From the sequence record OR062947.1: a stretch of DNA of 64,000 bases; one strand, written 5' to 3'. The position numbers were made by a program, and so were the translations under genes. Source of the DNA: Escherichia phage 348Ecol098PP. Each line of letters begins with the position of its first letter. Position 1 is the stretch's first letter. Positions 39,785-48,397 of the stretch are shown here, one piece after another. Below the pieces are notes generated by a model that had not been told where the DNA came from, ran no database searches, and saw only the letters and a list, made by a program, of their open reading frames with translations.

Positions 39785-40147
39785 ATGAAATATCACGTAT
39801 ATGCGGATTTTGAAGCAAATCCTTCTAAAGACCCCGATTGTCGTTTGATACGCAGACCATTTGATTCAGCAGCTCAAGCCTGGGCCTGGATTAAAACTTG
39901 TACTCCTTCTTACACTTTCTTTGAAGTGGTAGATGATAACGGTGTTCTGCATCCAGAACCTACAGAAACTATTAATTTCCTTCTGTTTGCAGGTTATGAC
40001 TGTTATCCTCTTGGCGGTATTGATGATCTTGTTGCTACAGGAAAAACTGTTGAGGCTCTTCGCGAAATCTACAAAAATGCTGAAGAAAATTTTGACTGGT
40101 ATCATATTGTTGATGCTCATACCTTTGAAATGGTGGAACATTCATGA
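39785..40147 (+). CDS. Hypothetical protein
   Basis: 120 aa from MKYHVYADFE with SD AAGGTGAG. Confidence 0.45.
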   Translation: MKYHVYADFEANPSKDPDCRLIRRPFDSAAQAWAWIKTCTPSYTFFEVVDDNGVLHPEPTETINFLLFAGYDCYPLGGIDDLVATGKTVEALREIYKNAEENFDWYHIVDAHTFEMVEHS

Positions 40148-41033: not shown

Positions 41034-41107
41034 GGCCCTGTAGCTCAACGGTTAGCAGCAGTCCCCTCATAAGGGAAAGGTTACCAGTTCGAATCTGGTC
41101 TGGGTCA
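41034..41107 (+). tRNA. tRNA with anticodon CAU (Ile2/Met type; T4 tRNA-Ile uses CAU)
   Basis: Hand-folded cloverleaf: acceptor GGCCCUG, T-arm ACCAG-UUCGAAU-CUGGU, anticodon loop CUCAUAA; one acceptor mismatch and a weak outer anticodon-stem pair; no encoded CCA. Confidence 0.55.
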
Positions 41108-41113
41108 TATATT

Positions 41114-41189
41114 CGAGGCATAGCTCAGAAGGAAGAGCAAGGACCTTCTAAGTCCTAGGTCGTAGGTTCGATCCCTACTGTCTCGACCA
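41114..41189 (+). tRNA. tRNA-Arg (anticodon UCU)
   Basis: Hand-folded canonical cloverleaf: acceptor CGAGGCA/UGUCUCG, D-arm GCUC-AGAAGGAA-GAGC, anticodon arm AGGAC-CUUCUAA-GUCCU, T-arm GUAGG-UUCGAUC-CCUAC, encoded CCA. Confidence 0.8.
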
Positions 41190-43248: not shown

Positions 43249-43476
43249 ATGGCTAAAGTTAGTATTGATGTCGTTGATTATGAATACACCGAAGAAGTTA
43301 TTCGCAACCGTCACCCTGAAGTTCGTATCGATTCAGCCCAAGATTCCAAGTTCTGGACAACTGAGCTTAATCTGAGTGGTCCTTATGAAGCTGTTAAGAA
43401 GTTCATGGTTGAAGAATACTGCGAAGGCATGCACCCGGAAGACGCCAAGTTTTATGTCAATTTGATTAAAAAATAA
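43249..43476 (+). CDS. Hypothetical protein
   Basis: 75 aa ORF with early promoter. Confidence 0.45.
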   Translation: MAKVSIDVVDYEYTEEVIRNRHPEVRIDSAQDSKFWTTELNLSGPYEAVKKFMVEEYCEGMHPEDAKFYVNLIKK

Positions 43477-44148: not shown

Positions 44149-44170
44149 GGAGGACTCCGGTCCTCCTTTT
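44149..44170 (+). terminator. Rho-independent terminator
   Basis: GGAGGAC-TCCG-GTCCTCC + TTTT. Confidence 0.55.
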
Positions 44171-44189: not shown

Positions 44190-44792
44190 ATGCGAAACCA
44201 AAATAATGATATTGACTCAATGTTCGAAGAGTTCCGAGATAAGGTAAATCCACCTACGTCTTTAGTTGATTCATTACGATATGTTGCAACCGGACGTAAA
44301 TGGTACTGGTCGTCTTCTTATGAGACCACCGAGAAAACGGCTAGCCATAGCAGAAAATCTTTATTAGCCCCAGGTATTATGATTCATGATATCGGAGCTA
44401 TTGCTAAACTAGTTGCAGATCATGATATTAGATTCACCGATTTCGTTGCTCCTACATGGTCTGTTTGTTGTTTAAACACTGAATTGGAATATATCAGCGA
44501 ACGCTCTGAAGATTATTATGGTTTTAGAGATAAGCTTCTGAGGTCTAATATGTTTTATATCGATACAGAAGTTCTAGTCGATAATAAAAAATATTACTTT
44601 ACGTTAATCATCGATTCTGAAACTATGTATGAAGGCAAGCCTTTGCTTAAAAGAGTTGATGCTTTAAGTGCTATTGATGCGCTTTATGAAACCATGGTTG
44701 TTAGTCCTAATTTCACTAACAATTTAATCCTTGAGCAATTTATTATGGAATGTAGAGAATATGTCAAAGCCAACCCTGTACATGCCAAGTAA
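44190..44792 (+). CDS. Hypothetical protein with C-terminal FIMECR tail
   Basis: 200 aa from MRNQNN; ends ...EQFIMECREYVKANPVHAK. Confidence 0.45.
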   Translation: MRNQNNDIDSMFEEFRDKVNPPTSLVDSLRYVATGRKWYWSSSYETTEKTASHSRKSLLAPGIMIHDIGAIAKLVADHDIRFTDFVAPTWSVCCLNTELEYISERSEDYYGFRDKLLRSNMFYIDTEVLVDNKKYYFTLIIDSETMYEGKPLLKRVDALSAIDALYETMVVSPNFTNNLILEQFIMECREYVKANPVHAK

Positions 44793-45153
44793 GCCCTGGG
44801 CATACGAATACAAACGTAAATTAATCCCAAACGAAGTACTATTTGGCCCTATTTTAGCTTTAGCATTTTTAATCTTTATGATTATAGGAGCTGTTTTAGA
44901 TTCTAGTGAAGTTATATCGTCTGATGCAGTGTTTTTACTTATTATAGCTGGGTCGTTTATTGTGCCATTTTTATTAATGCCTATTAATTGGGTGGGATAT
45001 TGGTACCAAGGACGTCATCACAGAGCTAGAGTACGCGAATGGAAAATTCAATGTGCAAAAGCAAGAGCTCAATATGACGAGGCTGTTAAAAAATATGAAT
45101 ATGACGAAGCCATGGAATTCGTTAAGGAGATAAGATGCAAAAGCCTGAACTGA
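44761..45153 (+). CDS. Small membrane protein with C-terminal EFVKEIRCK tail
   Basis: 130 aa from ATG at 44761; two hydrophobic helices. Confidence 0.45.
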   Translation: MSKPTLYMPSKPWAYEYKRKLIPNEVLFGPILALAFLIFMIIGAVLDSSEVISSDAVFLLIIAGSFIVPFLLMPINWVGYWYQGRHHRARVREWKIQCAKARAQYDEAVKKYEYDEAMEFVKEIRCKSLN

Positions 45154-45162
45154 ATTTATGCT

Positions 45163-45192
45163 GTTTACGCTTCTCAAATGATTAGTTATAAT
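45163..45192 (+). promoter_or_regulatory. Early promoter GTTTAC / TATAAT
   Basis: GTTTAC 45163-45168, 18-nt spacer, TATAAT 45187-45192. Confidence 0.5.
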
Positions 45193-45255
45193 GAACTCCT
45201 AGCTAGACGTGAAAATGAAACAATCGAAAACTTTATTAAGGAATGTAGAAAATGA
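45178..45255 (+). pseudogene. Vestigial 25-codon ORF retaining the ENFIKECRK tail
   Basis: MISYNELLARRENETIENFIKECRK; contains the -10 of the promoter for the next gene, so likely a remnant 3' end. Confidence 0.3.
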
Positions 45256-45557
45256 GTAAGATTATTGAAATTAAAGTACCAGAGTTTAATGATGCCAAAT
45301 CCGCTTCAGATGCAATTTATAAACTTCTGAATCAAGCTGAACGTATCGAAGAAGAAGCAACAAAGATCGCAGACCAATATGCCGTATCATTTTCTGTAGG
45401 TGATTATGGTAGCGGTCGTACTTATTATCCTAAGGGTGAAATCGTATCCCAGTGGATGAAAAATGAAATTGAAAATAATGGTGGCGATGTTAAGCGTGAA
45501 GGTAATGGTTACGTTATTACTGAAGGTGCTTGGGTTTCGTCTTCTGCGTTGTGCTAA
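45252..45557 (+). CDS. Small protein, WVSSSxxC-tail family member 1
   Basis: 101 aa; ends GAWVSSSALC. Confidence 0.5.
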   Translation: MSKIIEIKVPEFNDAKSASDAIYKLLNQAERIEEEATKIADQYAVSFSVGDYGSGRTYYPKGEIVSQWMKNEIENNGGDVKREGNGYVITEGAWVSSSALC

Positions 45558-45566
45558 GGAATCATT

Positions 45567-45839
45567 ATGTCTAAAGAACAAACCGAACTGGCTGAAGCTG
45601 TAGCAAAAATCTATGCAGCTATTGAGGCTGCCAAAGAAATTGCTGATAAACAAAACACAACATTCGACTTGCACCCAGCTTATGGTATGGGTGGAACCTA
45701 TCATTCACCCGGACATCTTAAAGCCGATCTTGAACGTTGTACAAAAAACGGCTATGCTGAATGGGCTGACGTTTACCAATACGACTACAACCTGAGCCTC
45801 GAAACTGGTGGTTGGGTCGCATCTTCTCACACTTGCTAA
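45567..45839 (+). CDS. Small protein, WVSSSxxC-tail family member 2
   Basis: 90 aa; ends GGWVASSHTC. Confidence 0.5.
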   Translation: MSKEQTELAEAVAKIYAAIEAAKEIADKQNTTFDLHPAYGMGGTYHSPGHLKADLERCTKNGYAEWADVYQYDYNLSLETGGWVASSHTC

Positions 45840-45848
45840 GGAAACTAT

Positions 45849-46046
45849 ATGTCTCGTGAATTAGATTGTGCTGTACGTACCGCAGTAGCTGCCCTGGAAA
45901 ACCTGTTCCAAATTGCAACAGAAGAACGCGAAGAAGTTACATTGTGGATTGAAGATAACGCAGGTCTGAATCTCCAGGACGCGATCTCATTATCCCACAA
46001 TAGTATCACTGTTCAAGGCTGGGTATCATCTAGTTATTCTTGCTAA
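45849..46046 (+). CDS. Small protein, WVSSSxxC-tail family member 3
   Basis: 65 aa; ends QGWVSSSYSC. Confidence 0.5.
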   Translation: MSRELDCAVRTAVAALENLFQIATEEREEVTLWIEDNAGLNLQDAISLSHNSITVQGWVSSSYSC

Positions 46047-46088: not shown

Positions 46089-46108
46089 CAAATTAAATGG
46101 AGTCCACA

Positions 46109-46348
46109 ATGATTTATTACGAAAGTATCGGAACCAAAGTGGTTGCTAAAACCATTACTCGTGAAAAGTTTGCAAAGATATTCGATATGCGTTATAAAAA
46201 ATCTGAACACAAAGGCATCCGATTCGAAGATGCGCACTGTACAATTTGCCCTTATAATGAAGACATAAACGGTACAATCGTTCCATTGGTAGAGGCTTCA
46301 CACGATGACCTCTGGGATGAATATGATATCGCATGTCGTGAAATTTAA
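46109..46348 (+). CDS. Hypothetical protein
   Basis: 79 aa from MIYYESIG with SD GGAG. Confidence 0.4.
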   Translation: MIYYESIGTKVVAKTITREKFAKIFDMRYKKSEHKGIRFEDAHCTICPYNEDINGTIVPLVEASHDDLWDEYDIACREI

Positions 46349-46376: not shown

Positions 46377-47333
46377 ATGATGTTAGTTATTGGTTCTCGT
46401 GCACTTCACTATCACGGTCTTATTGATTCTAGCGCTATCAAAAATAGTGATTGGGACTTTATTGCGGACCAAGGTTCTTGGAATGCATTCAAAAATCAAA
46501 TGATGGGTGTATATGTTCACCAAGATAACCCTAATGTTCAAGTTTTCAAATGCTTCCATAATGGACGCGAAACTCATTTTGAAGCATATATTGTTCCGGC
46601 AATCACTAATGTCCGTGAATTAGTCGGTGAACTCACTCCTGAAGATTTCACGTCTTCTTATGACCTTTTAAAATACGCCAAGAAAAATTTGACTAAAGAC
46701 CGTTTGAACGGGTTTTACTGGGCAACTCCTGAGATATGTCTTGCAATTAAGATGTCTCATCGTTTCAAGAAAAATAATCCATTCTTTTTAAAGACTATGA
46801 ACCATATTCAGTATCTTCGTGGTAAAGGTGTTACACTGAACGATGAACTTACTGAAATTATGCTGAAACGCCAGAAAGAAACCTTGAACTATGCTCACCC
46901 AGTTCTTGACACTTCTAAAAGTGCGTTCTTTAAAGATGACATCTATACATATGACCATGATACTATTCATGAAGCCATTGCACTAACAGACCGTCCAGCG
47001 TATACATTTTATATGAAAGATGGTTCTGAAGTCATGACCTCACGCGAGAAGTTCGAATCGTTACCCGAAATGATTAAACTGGCTGGTGTATACGAAGAAT
47101 CATGTGTACTAGCATTAGAACGTTCTCAAATTCCTAATGACTTTAAAATTAACCCTGAAGCCAGTTTTATGATGGCATTGGAAAAAGTCTGTACAAGCAT
47201 CACCTCCGGTTGGTTCCGTGAATACGCATACGAGAACTATTATGAAGTAGTGGCTATGTATCATAAGCTCGGCAAAAATGATTACGTCAAACGTTTCAAA
47301 CAAAATTTCCATATGGTAAAACCTTTCAAATAA
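46377..47333 (+). CDS. Hypothetical protein (318 aa)
   Basis: Long ORF; N-terminal IGSRAL...SDWDF loosely resembles a nucleotidyltransferase motif (weak). Confidence 0.45.
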   Translation: MMLVIGSRALHYHGLIDSSAIKNSDWDFIADQGSWNAFKNQMMGVYVHQDNPNVQVFKCFHNGRETHFEAYIVPAITNVRELVGELTPEDFTSSYDLLKYAKKNLTKDRLNGFYWATPEICLAIKMSHRFKKNNPFFLKTMNHIQYLRGKGVTLNDELTEIMLKRQKETLNYAHPVLDTSKSAFFKDDIYTYDHDTIHEAIALTDRPAYTFYMKDGSEVMTSREKFESLPEMIKLAGVYEESCVLALERSQIPNDFKINPEASFMMALEKVCTSITSGWFREYAYENYYEVVAMYHKLGKNDYVKRFKQNFHMVKPFK

Positions 47334-47403: not shown

Positions 47404-47709
47404 ATGAAATTAGGCGAAACCAACCGAATTGGTCTTTTAACAATATTTGCATCACCTTTTTACGCAACTCTTTCTGTTGCAGTATTACAAAAGGCTTACA
47501 GTATGGATGGTGTTCCTGGTTTTGTATTCTTATCACCGTTTTTATTATTCGTCGGAGCTTTGTTATTATATGCCACGACTAGTTTCGACCATAATGTCTG
47601 GGTCAATTATAAATGTAAATTGTCCGAAGAAGAACACGCAGAAGCTCGTAAAAAAGCTATTGAATCTACCAATCTAGAAAATTTCATTAAAGAATGTCGA
47701 GGAAAATAA
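47404..47709 (+). CDS. Small membrane protein with C-terminal ENFIKECRGK tail
   Basis: 101 aa; two hydrophobic helices. Confidence 0.5.
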   Translation: MKLGETNRIGLLTIFASPFYATLSVAVLQKAYSMDGVPGFVFLSPFLLFVGALLLYATTSFDHNVWVNYKCKLSEEEHAEARKKAIESTNLENFIKECRGK

Positions 47710-47710
47710 T

Positions 47711-48397
47711 ATGAATAGTTCTAAAGTGTTTAATAGTCAAGCTCGTGCAGTAGGTGGTTTTGCTCATGCGATTAAAAACGACCAGATTAAAAACGAGCCT
47801 ATGTTCTTTAACTGCGATTTGAATTTTGCTTTTGATAATGGTGGTCCAATTACTCGTAGCTTTATCATGAACTTGCCAGATGATTGGAACACCGACCAGG
47901 TTGTATTTGATTCACGAGTCCACATGCTGATGCCAGGTTGGTACCCTGCTATTCCTGGATATCACCATGACGATGTTCCACGCCCTGATATTCCAGTTGG
48001 TCAACACTTTATTACTGCAGGACAACCTGACTATGACAATCCTCGTTATTTGTCTGAACATATTCTTGGTCTTGTTAACGCTGATGTGTGTCCTACTCAT
48101 TTTGCAACAGGAACTGCAGAGTTCAGTCAGATTCCTGATGGCGAACTTATCTATCGCCAGTGGCACAAAGAAGTCCTCGAAAAAATTGAAAAAGGTGAAC
48201 TAGAGAAATGGGAAGCTCCAGATCGTACTCTTCTTCAGTTTGATTGGCAAACATGGCACACTGGTTCTCGTGCAATTAGTAACGGATGGCGTTGGTTCGG
48301 ACGTGTATCTCGTAATACAGACCGAGTTAAAAAGATTACCAATGAAATTCGTGTCAACGCTCAAGTTTATCTGGAATTCCCTATGGAAGGCTGGTAA
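47711..48397 (+). CDS. Hypothetical protein (228 aa)
   Basis: Starts 2 nt after previous stop; His-rich PGYHHDD segment. Confidence 0.45.
   Translation: MNSSKVFNSQARAVGGFAHAIKNDQIKNEPMFFNCDLNFAFDNGGPITRSFIMNLPDDWNTDQVVFDSRVHMLMPGWYPAIPGYHHDDVPRPDIPVGQHFITAGQPDYDNPRYLSEHILGLVNADVCPTHFATGTAEFSQIPDGELIYRQWHKEVLEKIEKGELEKWEAPDRTLLQFDWQTWHTGSRAISNGWRWFGRVSRNTDRVKKITNEIRVNAQVYLEFPMEGW

Follow-up and report, generated by a model that had tools for sequence, protein, structure and literature searches.

Why would three adjacent phage genes with divergent bodies encode proteins that finish in the same way, each with a cysteine as its very last residue? The question is raised by a locus in Escherichia phage 348Ecol098PP (sequence record OR062947.1), of which we analyzed a stretch of 64,000 nucleotides, hereafter the window. 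The window derives from an RB69-like Mosigvirus, with ~98% identity to Escherichia phages moskry, moha, and other Mosigvirus genomes. The genes in question, here called ORF1, ORF2, and ORF3 (ORF, open reading frame), had been singled out in a sequence-only reading of this DNA as a locally amplified family with a conserved C-terminal function. Our analysis places them in a large, phage-only family that is without earlier study, which we refer to as the Cys-tail family, and the best-supported interpretation is that they form one functional module with a nucleotidyltransferase (NTase) encoded downstream.

A small-protein family defined by its C-terminus

ORF1–3 are consecutive, lie on the + strand, and encode proteins of 101, 90, and 65 amino acids, with coordinates that match both the ORF list and the sequence exactly (Table 1). 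All three translations bear the common C-terminus, with Cys in final position. In near-identical Mosigvirus genomes the genes are annotated as coding sequences ("hypothetical protein"); the RB69 copy of ORF1 is frameshifted (RB69ORF139c, 71 amino acids). A six-frame translation of the window contains exactly three occurrences of W.[SA]SS..C, each abutting the stop codon of one of these genes, while Cys-terminal ORFs account for 8 of the 334 ORFs of at least 40 amino acids. The chance of finding the tail motif at a given C-terminus, calculated from composition, is ~1.3e-7. Because the three tails use different codons (Val GTT, GTC, and GTA; Ser TCG, TCT, and AGT), they do not represent a recent DNA repeat.

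Two features attributed to the triplet required qualification. The bodies are divergent, with ~25–34% identity between paralogues, but they are not wholly unrelated: pairwise BLASTP comparisons gave E values of 2e-4, 4e-4, and 7e-3, and ORF1 and ORF2 share an N-terminal helix ending in ..IAD.. as well as the element YG.G.TY, the latter missing from ORF3. The sequence TAAGGAA, in which the stop codon overlaps the next Shine-Dalgarno sequence and which was said to follow each gene, occurs at the ends of ORF1 and ORF2, whereas TAAAACAG follows ORF3. All three proteins are acidic (net charges of -5, -6, and -7), and ORF1 contains no His.

Family searches placed the proteins in clusters that carry no annotation and whose function is unknown, with strong matches of ORF1 and ORF2 to PHROG 899 (E = 1.8e-22 and 6e-19, respectively) and of ORF3 to PHROG 4882 (E = 7.7e-37). 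The tail and the gene context show that PHROGs divides into two what is one superfamily, and a single family hidden Markov model (HMM) matched all three (E = 1.3e-34, 1.6e-22, and 4.4e-6 for ORF1, ORF2, and ORF3). Pfam, NCBIfam, and PADLOC returned sub-threshold noise alone for ORF1–3 (Peptidase_S78_2, E217_Gp32, and an MscS C-terminal domain). Word-indexed searches yielded 64 relatives. When a profile was run exhaustively against 1.84 billion cluster representatives, 672 proteins scored E<=1e-3, 102 of them E<=1e-10; counted at 50% identity, the family has at least 672 clusters. Nearly all of these matches are 65–140 amino acids long, and nearly all align up to their last residue. Cys is exactly last in 129 of the 138 new representatives listed, and the remainder mostly carry one residue beyond it. 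We sought informative domain fusions among the longer family members and found none.

To describe the tail we compiled a logo from 189 members, which were chosen as Cys-ending, so that Cys(0) is fixed by the selection itself. The other positions are nearly invariant, with Trp at -7 in 187 members, Ser at -4 in 188, and Ser at -3 in 187; position -5 is Ser, Ala, or Pro. The element YG.G is present in 172 of the same 189 proteins, whose median net charge is -8. Across the family the constant core is W-x-x-S-S-(x)0-2-C-COOH, with a rarer subtype, W-x-x-S-S-C, that lacks the spacer; variants with shorter spacing include WVQSSC, WDSSTC, and WYTSSC. The tail is the one element common to all subtypes, including ORF3-like proteins of 65 amino acids and forms of 140–170 amino acids with other N-termini. 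In 35 of the 189 members (P0081, P0099, P0184, and P0202 among them) the acidic linkers contain further, degenerate versions of the motif ([DE]W.SS.C; examples, WESSSEGWESSSEGWVSSSSQC and DFDSSGCSDDFDSSGCS), a pattern that suggests that the tail motif works as a short site of recognition that can be repeated.

Among 142 distinct DNA sequences encoding tails, codons of the TCN box and of the AGY box are found at both invariant Ser positions, the final Cys is TGC in 88 and TGT in 54, and all three stop codons are represented. Since each of these varies, it is the peptide, not a DNA or RNA element, that is under selection. These data refute the explanation that the resemblance within the triplet arises from chance, from an annotation artefact, or from a non-coding conserved DNA element: a motif expected at ~1e-7 per C-terminus occurs three times in a row and recurs in the 672 clusters, codons at the invariant residues have turned over both synonymously and between the TCN and AGY boxes, and Rfam has no match on the triplet or its neighbors, its sole hits between positions 40000 and 50000 being two tRNAs at 41034–41189. 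ORF1–3 are thus paralogues within a family whose C-terminus is under strong selection at the protein level, in agreement with the sequence-only reading; its stated alternative, that they might be ordinary homologues of a characterized T4 gene with no C-terminal motif conserved across relatives, was not borne out.

What did not hold is that the amplification is local. Orthologues of ORF1, ORF2, and ORF3 are found in the same order in Dhakavirus and in T4-like phages of Klebsiella, Enterobacter, Edwardsiella, and Yersinia, often accompanied by one or two additional tail-bearing paralogues. These orthologues, at 42–63% identity, resemble their window counterparts more than the window paralogues resemble each other, and given their collinearity across genera the triplication is an ancient duplication that has been maintained. 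ORF2 alone has matches in 280 phage records (tblastn), and the Cys-tail family occurs far outside the T4-like phages as well.

An AlphaFold2 model of ORF1, computed from the family alignment, predicts a compact helix-and-sheet protein (predicted local distance difference test score [pLDDT] 92, predicted template modeling score [pTM] 0.77) with a long helix at residues 15–43, a small sheet, and a tail made up of a strand at 93–96 and a short helix at 97–100. The modeled fold has no match in the PDB. By profile, the best PDB match was residues 640–704 of lacto-N-biose phosphorylase ("DYGKGRGVY...AAWSSSNPEC", E = 0.06), which we treated as chance or local convergence; the remaining weak sequence matches were to coiled-coil proteins (GCN4 fusions and designed helical proteins). 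Ubiquitin-like and ThiS-MoaD sulfur carriers do not fit either: those have a beta-grasp fold and a C-terminal Gly-Gly on which an E1-like enzyme acts, whereas the Cys-tail proteins end in x-x-C, no beta-grasp match was found, and the partner enzyme has a Pol-beta NTase fold.

Linkage to a DUF7275 nucleotidyltransferase

The conserved partner gene of the Cys-tail family begins ~330 bp beyond the ORF3 stop codon, on the same strand, and encodes an NTase. Two distant loci examined at the outset, on a 361-kb jumbo-phage contig and on an 87-kb contig, show the pairing again. Each has two tail-bearing paralogues, followed after 0.7–1.5 kb by a same-strand gene whose product is homologous to the window NTase, with 38–44% identity.

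We quantified this linkage in both directions, using loci from pattern-based scans, so that the counts that follow are phylogenetically uncorrected. Starting from the small proteins, the NTase gene was present in 32 of 34 IMG/VR loci, and the two exceptions are contigs that end less than 0.9 kb from the small gene. With four further look-ups, all 36 loci having enough downstream DNA carry the enzyme, on the same strand, ~0–2 kb away, and with identity down to 38%; these include the 361-kb contig and unclassified contigs of 11–40 kb. Starting from the enzyme, 70 of 80 IMG/VR NTase loci have family HMM matches upstream on the same strand, and another six contain tail ORFs that the HMM missed and that a regular expression or inspection of the ORFs recovered; two of the six show the shorter-spaced endings WVQSSC and WDSSTC. 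The number of tail genes per NTase locus ranges from one to six. Endings of the form W..S[ST]..C are found in 152 of 1440 ORFs within the 4 kb upstream on the same strand, versus 7 of 6675 elsewhere in the same loci.

When neighbors were clustered across 19–20 NTase lineages (<60% identity), the Cys-tail clusters were the only ones with a wide distribution, reaching 12 lineages when BLAST linkage alone was counted, and no other neighbor family appeared in more than four. The pairing recurs in unrelated groups, including Phapecoctavirus, Otagovirus, Lazarusvirus, Mimasvirus, Menderavirus, and a Variovorax phage. Among the loci seen, only in Stenotrophomonas phage YB07 (Menderavirus; L136 6207–6745) do the tail genes follow the NTase gene instead of preceding it. 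Homologues of the enzyme are present in 733 phage records, a few of which label it "nucleotidyltransferase", and none of 120 homologues carries the tail or is fused to a family member. In a scan of bacteria and archaea with one genome per species (185,579), we found five loci, all on contigs of metagenome-assembled genomes (MAGs) and all with tail genes. Our literature search found no papers on RB69ORF139c, on DUF7275 or DUF7277, on PF23940 or PF23942, or on the PHROG identifiers.

The sequence-only reading did not recognize the family from T4, and in T4 a whole-genome scan by HMM and motif found neither a tail ORF nor a DUF7275 homologue. T4 Tk.1 (NC_000866 60346–60534; L131), a 62-residue protein that contains FEISSEYGDAETYYE, gives a weak match to the body of the family HMM (E = 0.0045) and has no tail; it may be a degenerate relative. 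T4 nrdC.11, annotated as a "nucleotidyltransferase", proved not to be a DUF7275 homologue.

These patterns bear on another account of the locus, in which the small proteins are independent host-takeover or anti-defense binders that might, for instance, mimic DNA or RNA by virtue of their acidity. The terminal Cys would serve in disulfide-linked or metal-bridged oligomerization or in target binding, and the NTase would be merely syntenic within an early-gene cassette. The proteins do have the character typical of phage inhibitors, being small, acidic, encoded in an early region, and present as multiple paralogues; the long amphipathic helix at their N-terminus could pair into a coiled coil, for which the weak coiled-coil PDB matches may be taken as support; a few NTase loci are without tail genes; and YB07 demonstrates that gene order is not fixed. 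The linkage nevertheless persists where every other neighbor has been replaced, loci of the family without the NTase number 0 of 36, and T4 lacks the two parts together. We consider independent binders an improbable explanation, and treat ORF1–3 and the NTase as one module in what follows.

Candidate roles for the tail and the enzyme

The NTase is composed of a DUF7277 catalytic domain and a DUF7275 helical domain, with a fold like those of MenT, AbiEii, and ANT. Its homologues preserve G6, S7, D25, D27, and E69 without exception, which constitutes the Pol-beta nucleotidyltransferase signature (G-S...D-x-D...E). About 40 further residues are invariant, mostly in the helical C-domain, in motifs that include YDHDSIHE, ALERSQIP, and KVCTSITSGWFRE; nothing in the PDB matches this C-domain, whether in sequence or in fold. 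Structurally, the enzyme is closest to the tRNA-modifying toxins MenT1, MenT3/TglT, and MenT4.

The sequence-only reading named modification, metal binding, and docking as possible roles of the tail; the near-constant presence of an NTase gene nearby, which that reading did not note, lends indirect support to docking or modification. Because the tail and the NTase C-domain are the most conserved features of the module, we infer that they are its interacting surfaces. The tail would then be the handle by which the NTase binds, and perhaps nucleotidylates, the small proteins, a reading that we favor only tentatively and at somewhat less than even likelihood; we give about the same weight to the tail being an interface that physically contacts the enzyme. 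In this model the conserved helical C-domain would recognize the conserved tail. Docking would involve the Trp and the terminal Cys, the latter through its thiol and its free carboxylate, and the two invariant Ser would present their hydroxyls to the catalytic center. The enzyme would thus have the small proteins as its dedicated partners, most probably as acceptors that receive a nucleotide on a tail Ser, or else as adaptors, and the divergent bodies of the paralogues would direct each copy to a different downstream target in the infected cell. Nucleotidylation of a tail Ser, taken as a step by itself, is speculative and in our view unlikely, and any biological target of the small proteins is likewise speculative.

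A set of NTase residues tracks the presence of the tail. The six tail-linked NTases that we aligned individually all retain H174, C272, S277, and R281 (motif KVCTSITSGWFRE, in which C272 is the invariant Cys), and C272 is retained in all 122 tail-associated NTases examined. In six tail-less "short" NTases, C272, S277, and R281 are replaced in every case (272 by Ile, Phe, or Val; 277 by Lys) and H174 in five. The motif with C272 may be where the tail binds, may perform thiol chemistry, or may simply mark a subfamily. C243 was noted beside these four residues in the window NTase.

Four of the tail-less short enzymes, from Streptomyces phage Faust, Gordonia phage Culver, Rhodococcus phage NiceHouse, and Vibrio phage K470, are followed by one to three tandem paralogues of another acidic small protein (Table 1). 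This second partner family has no Pfam match, and its C-terminus reads ..F[RK]..G.Y.S[WY]D..W...EV.P..KT[IV]TVY. Homology between the Cys-tail family and this actinophage-type family was considered and rejected (hhalign probability 0.2%). Given that the short NTases are accompanied by arrays of their own, arrays of small acidic partners seem to characterize this enzyme family in general.

Systems that combine an NTase with small partners dedicated to it are of a known kind; it is the small-protein component that is without known relatives. MntA-HepT (MNT-HEPN), GlnE, and GlnD are or contain Pol-beta NTases that add adenosine or uridine monophosphate (AMP or UMP) to a side-chain hydroxyl of a dedicated partner protein, and their acceptors are Tyr residues in HEPN, glutamine synthetase (GS), or PII proteins. 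The likeness to our module lies in the combination of an NTase with partners that have invariant Ser and, in most members, an invariant Tyr. Unlike HEPN proteins, ORF1–3 lack the R-x4-6-H motif and gave no HEPN match in Pfam and no fold match.

The structural kinship with MenT raises the alternative of an antitoxin-like role, in which the small proteins would regulate or inhibit the NTase. As acidic nucleic-acid mimics they would plug the active site of a MenT-like, tRNA-directed enzyme with their tail, whose terminal carboxylate and thiolate would coordinate the catalytic metals while its Ser hydroxyls stand in for a ribose, and would in this way time or restrict the enzyme during infection. 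MenT1, MenT3/TglT, and MenT4 do have cognate small proteins that control them, the small genes precede the enzyme gene in the usual antitoxin order, the family is strongly acidic, tRNA, RNA-ligase, or polynucleotide kinase (PNK) genes are found near several loci, and metal chelation would account for the terminal Cys. The correspondence with MenT/MenA and AbiEii/AbiEi breaks down in several respects, however. The phage NTase has no sequence-family match to DUF1814/AbiEii and carries the extra, highly conserved DUF7275 domain; ORF1–3 are unrelated to MenA or AbiEi; and one to six paralogues per enzyme, forming separate orthologous lines, differ from a one-to-one antitoxin. MenAT and AbiE are cassettes of bacterial or archaeal chromosomes and plasmids, whereas the present module belongs to virulent phages, which have no obvious need to shield the host from their own enzyme, and is essentially absent from bacteria. 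We regard the antitoxin-like role as doubtful.

A further possibility is suggested by the spacing of the tail. C-terminal S-x-x-C-COOH is the ring spacing of S-aminovinyl-cysteine (AviCys) in epidermin-type peptides, and the window tails (S-A-L-C, S-H-T-C, and S-Y-S-C) resemble the precursors of such AviCys or lanthionine-containing ribosomally synthesized and post-translationally modified peptides (RiPPs). A tail Ser could be nucleotidylated and eliminated to dehydroalanine, to which the terminal Cys would add, giving a lanthionine- or AviCys-like ring and a cross-linked or reactive C-terminus. Invariant Ser and an obligatorily terminal Cys suit such chemistry, and the many invariant polar residues of the NTase C-domain could hold a second active site. 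We nonetheless judge this very unlikely. The neighbors encode no flavoprotein Cys decarboxylase, no LanB-, LanM-, or LanKC-type dehydratase, and no cyclase domain (LanD, LanB, and LanM were absent from a Pfam scan of 17 neighboring ORFs, and no such neighbor is conserved in the 80 loci); the proteins are predicted to be folded domains of 65–170 residues, as in the AlphaFold2 model of ORF1, and not leader-core peptides; tails such as WYTSSC and WDSSTC, with zero or one residue between the Ser pair and Cys, are incompatible with one fixed ring; and we know of no dehydration driven by an NTase.

Several observations weigh against the tail as a docking handle for the NTase. Gene linkage can reflect co-regulation or a common pathway without direct interaction, and in the window an unrelated gene of 83 codons, with its own promoter-like site, separates the triplet from the NTase. 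Four of the 80 loci (L064, L082, L083, and L085) have a C272-type NTase and no tail gene within 6 kb upstream. The correlation of residues 174, 272, 277, and 281 with the tail may stem from a single ancient subfamily split and not from co-adaptation. In the ORF1 model the tail packs on the body (pLDDT ~87 over residues 91–100), and the tail Trp may simply be a core residue instead of part of a free docking peptide. The enzymes most similar to the NTase in structure have tRNA or small molecules, not proteins, as substrates, and a Ser acceptor would not on its own account for the strictly final position of Cys. As a separate observation, the NTase gene of L085 is itself split by a frameshift.

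The docking reading can be extended to a protein-modification system, in which the NTase would load a nucleotide, or prime a short oligonucleotide, on the tail Ser, and the resulting conjugates would attack or decoy host targets such as tRNA-directed or nucleotide-sensing defenses; chemistry at the terminal Cys could follow, and the second partner family would have the same role for the actinophage short enzymes. We consider this extended scheme, which would be a previously unrecognized system, unlikely. The sole precedent that we found in the literature for a phage NTase with an anti-defense role is Gad2, an anti-Gabija protein of 400 amino acids with a predicted NTase domain, from SPbeta-like Bacillus phages (bioRxiv 10.1101/2023.05.01.538930). 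Like the enzyme described here, it is an NTase-fold protein encoded by phages and nearly confined to them, but no Cys-tail partner is reported for it (bioRxiv 10.1101/2023.05.01.538930).

Three "hypothetical proteins" thus become members of a very large, phage-restricted family tied to one enzyme, in a module present in many large virulent phages, among them genera that serve in therapy or as models (Mosigvirus, Dhakavirus, Phapecoctavirus, T4-like phages of Acinetobacter and Klebsiella, and jumbo phages). If the NTase modifies the tails or is controlled by them, this would add a new case of enzyme-driven host takeover or counter-defense and would provide a function for two Pfam DUFs, possibly together with a new protein-nucleotide modification. 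Read conservatively, it is a testable gene pair with precise targets for mutagenesis (the Trp, the Ser pair, and the terminal Cys) and with T4 as a negative control.

Neighboring genes and sites

Table 1. Positions of the genes and sites discussed; window coordinates unless a locus handle is given
Feature	Position	Strand	Remarks
Promoter-like site TTTACG-17-TATAAT	45164..45192	+	Upstream of ORF1; weak
ORF1	45252..45557	+	101 aa; Cys-tail family, GDYGSGRTYYP subtype; C-terminus GAWVSSSALC
ORF1 tail codons W-V-S-S-S-A-L-C	45531..45554	+	
TAAGGAA, ORF1 stop overlapping ORF2 Shine-Dalgarno	45555..45561	+	Sequence read directly
ORF2	45567..45839	+	90 aa; Cys-tail family, AYGMGGTY subtype; C-terminus GGWVASSHTC
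ORF2 tail codons W-V-A-S-S-H-T-C	45813..45836	+	
TAAGGAA, ORF2 stop overlapping ORF3 Shine-Dalgarno	45837..45843	+	Sequence read directly
ORF3	45849..46046	+	65 aa; short subtype without YG.G.TY; C-terminus QGWVSSSYSC
ORF3 tail codons W-V-S-S-S-Y-S-C	46020..46043	+	
83-aa gene (PHROG 3723)	46097..46348	+	Between triplet and NTase
318-aa NTase	46377..47333	+	Pfam DUF7277 + DUF7275; conserved partner gene of Cys-tail family
Second small-protein family behind short NTases	L041 4633-5634; L042 4454-5657; L138 5785-6824; L043 4991-5356		

The 83-codon gene between the triplet and the NTase is found only in T4-like lineages and was not common across lineages in the neighbor clustering; it is probably not a core part of the module. 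A scan of the region for promoters and terminators found such sites to be no commoner than in shuffled sequence, and the promoter-like site upstream of ORF1 is not statistically meaningful. This site falls inside a remnant, at 45154–45251, left by a ~250-bp deletion that took out most of a gene that in many relatives (F27_0135, OP870146) encodes a membrane protein of 120 amino acids; the remnant retains the start of the gene (MQKPEL) and its last ~27 codons (..ENFIKECRK*). Two predicted membrane proteins of 140 (44731–45153) and 101 (47404–47709) amino acids and the deleted gene have similar C-termini (EFVKEIRCKSLN, ENFIKECRGK, and ENFIKECRK, respectively), and from these sequences they look like a second paralogous family of small proteins interleaved with the Cys-tail genes. 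The label "sulfurtransferase", given to the upstream 140-residue protein in one relative, found no support in Pfam or PHROG and was set aside.

Further downstream, a protein of 228 amino acids (47711–48397) has no Pfam, NCBIfam, or PADLOC match; it is unusually conserved, being 73–94% identical across T4-like genera and 43% identical in an unrelated 87-kb contig, and its His/Asp-rich stretch PGYHHDDVPR could mark an enzyme. Upstream, a strong terminator-like hairpin (GGAGGAC..GTCCTCC, then a T run) lies at 44149–44166 between genes of 202 and 207 codons, and a homologue of T4 frd.3 (Pfam Phage_FRD3) is located at 43249–43476, not beside frd. The two tRNA genes, ~4 kb upstream of the triplet, have the anticodon CAT (Ile2 in a relative) and the identity Arg-TCT.

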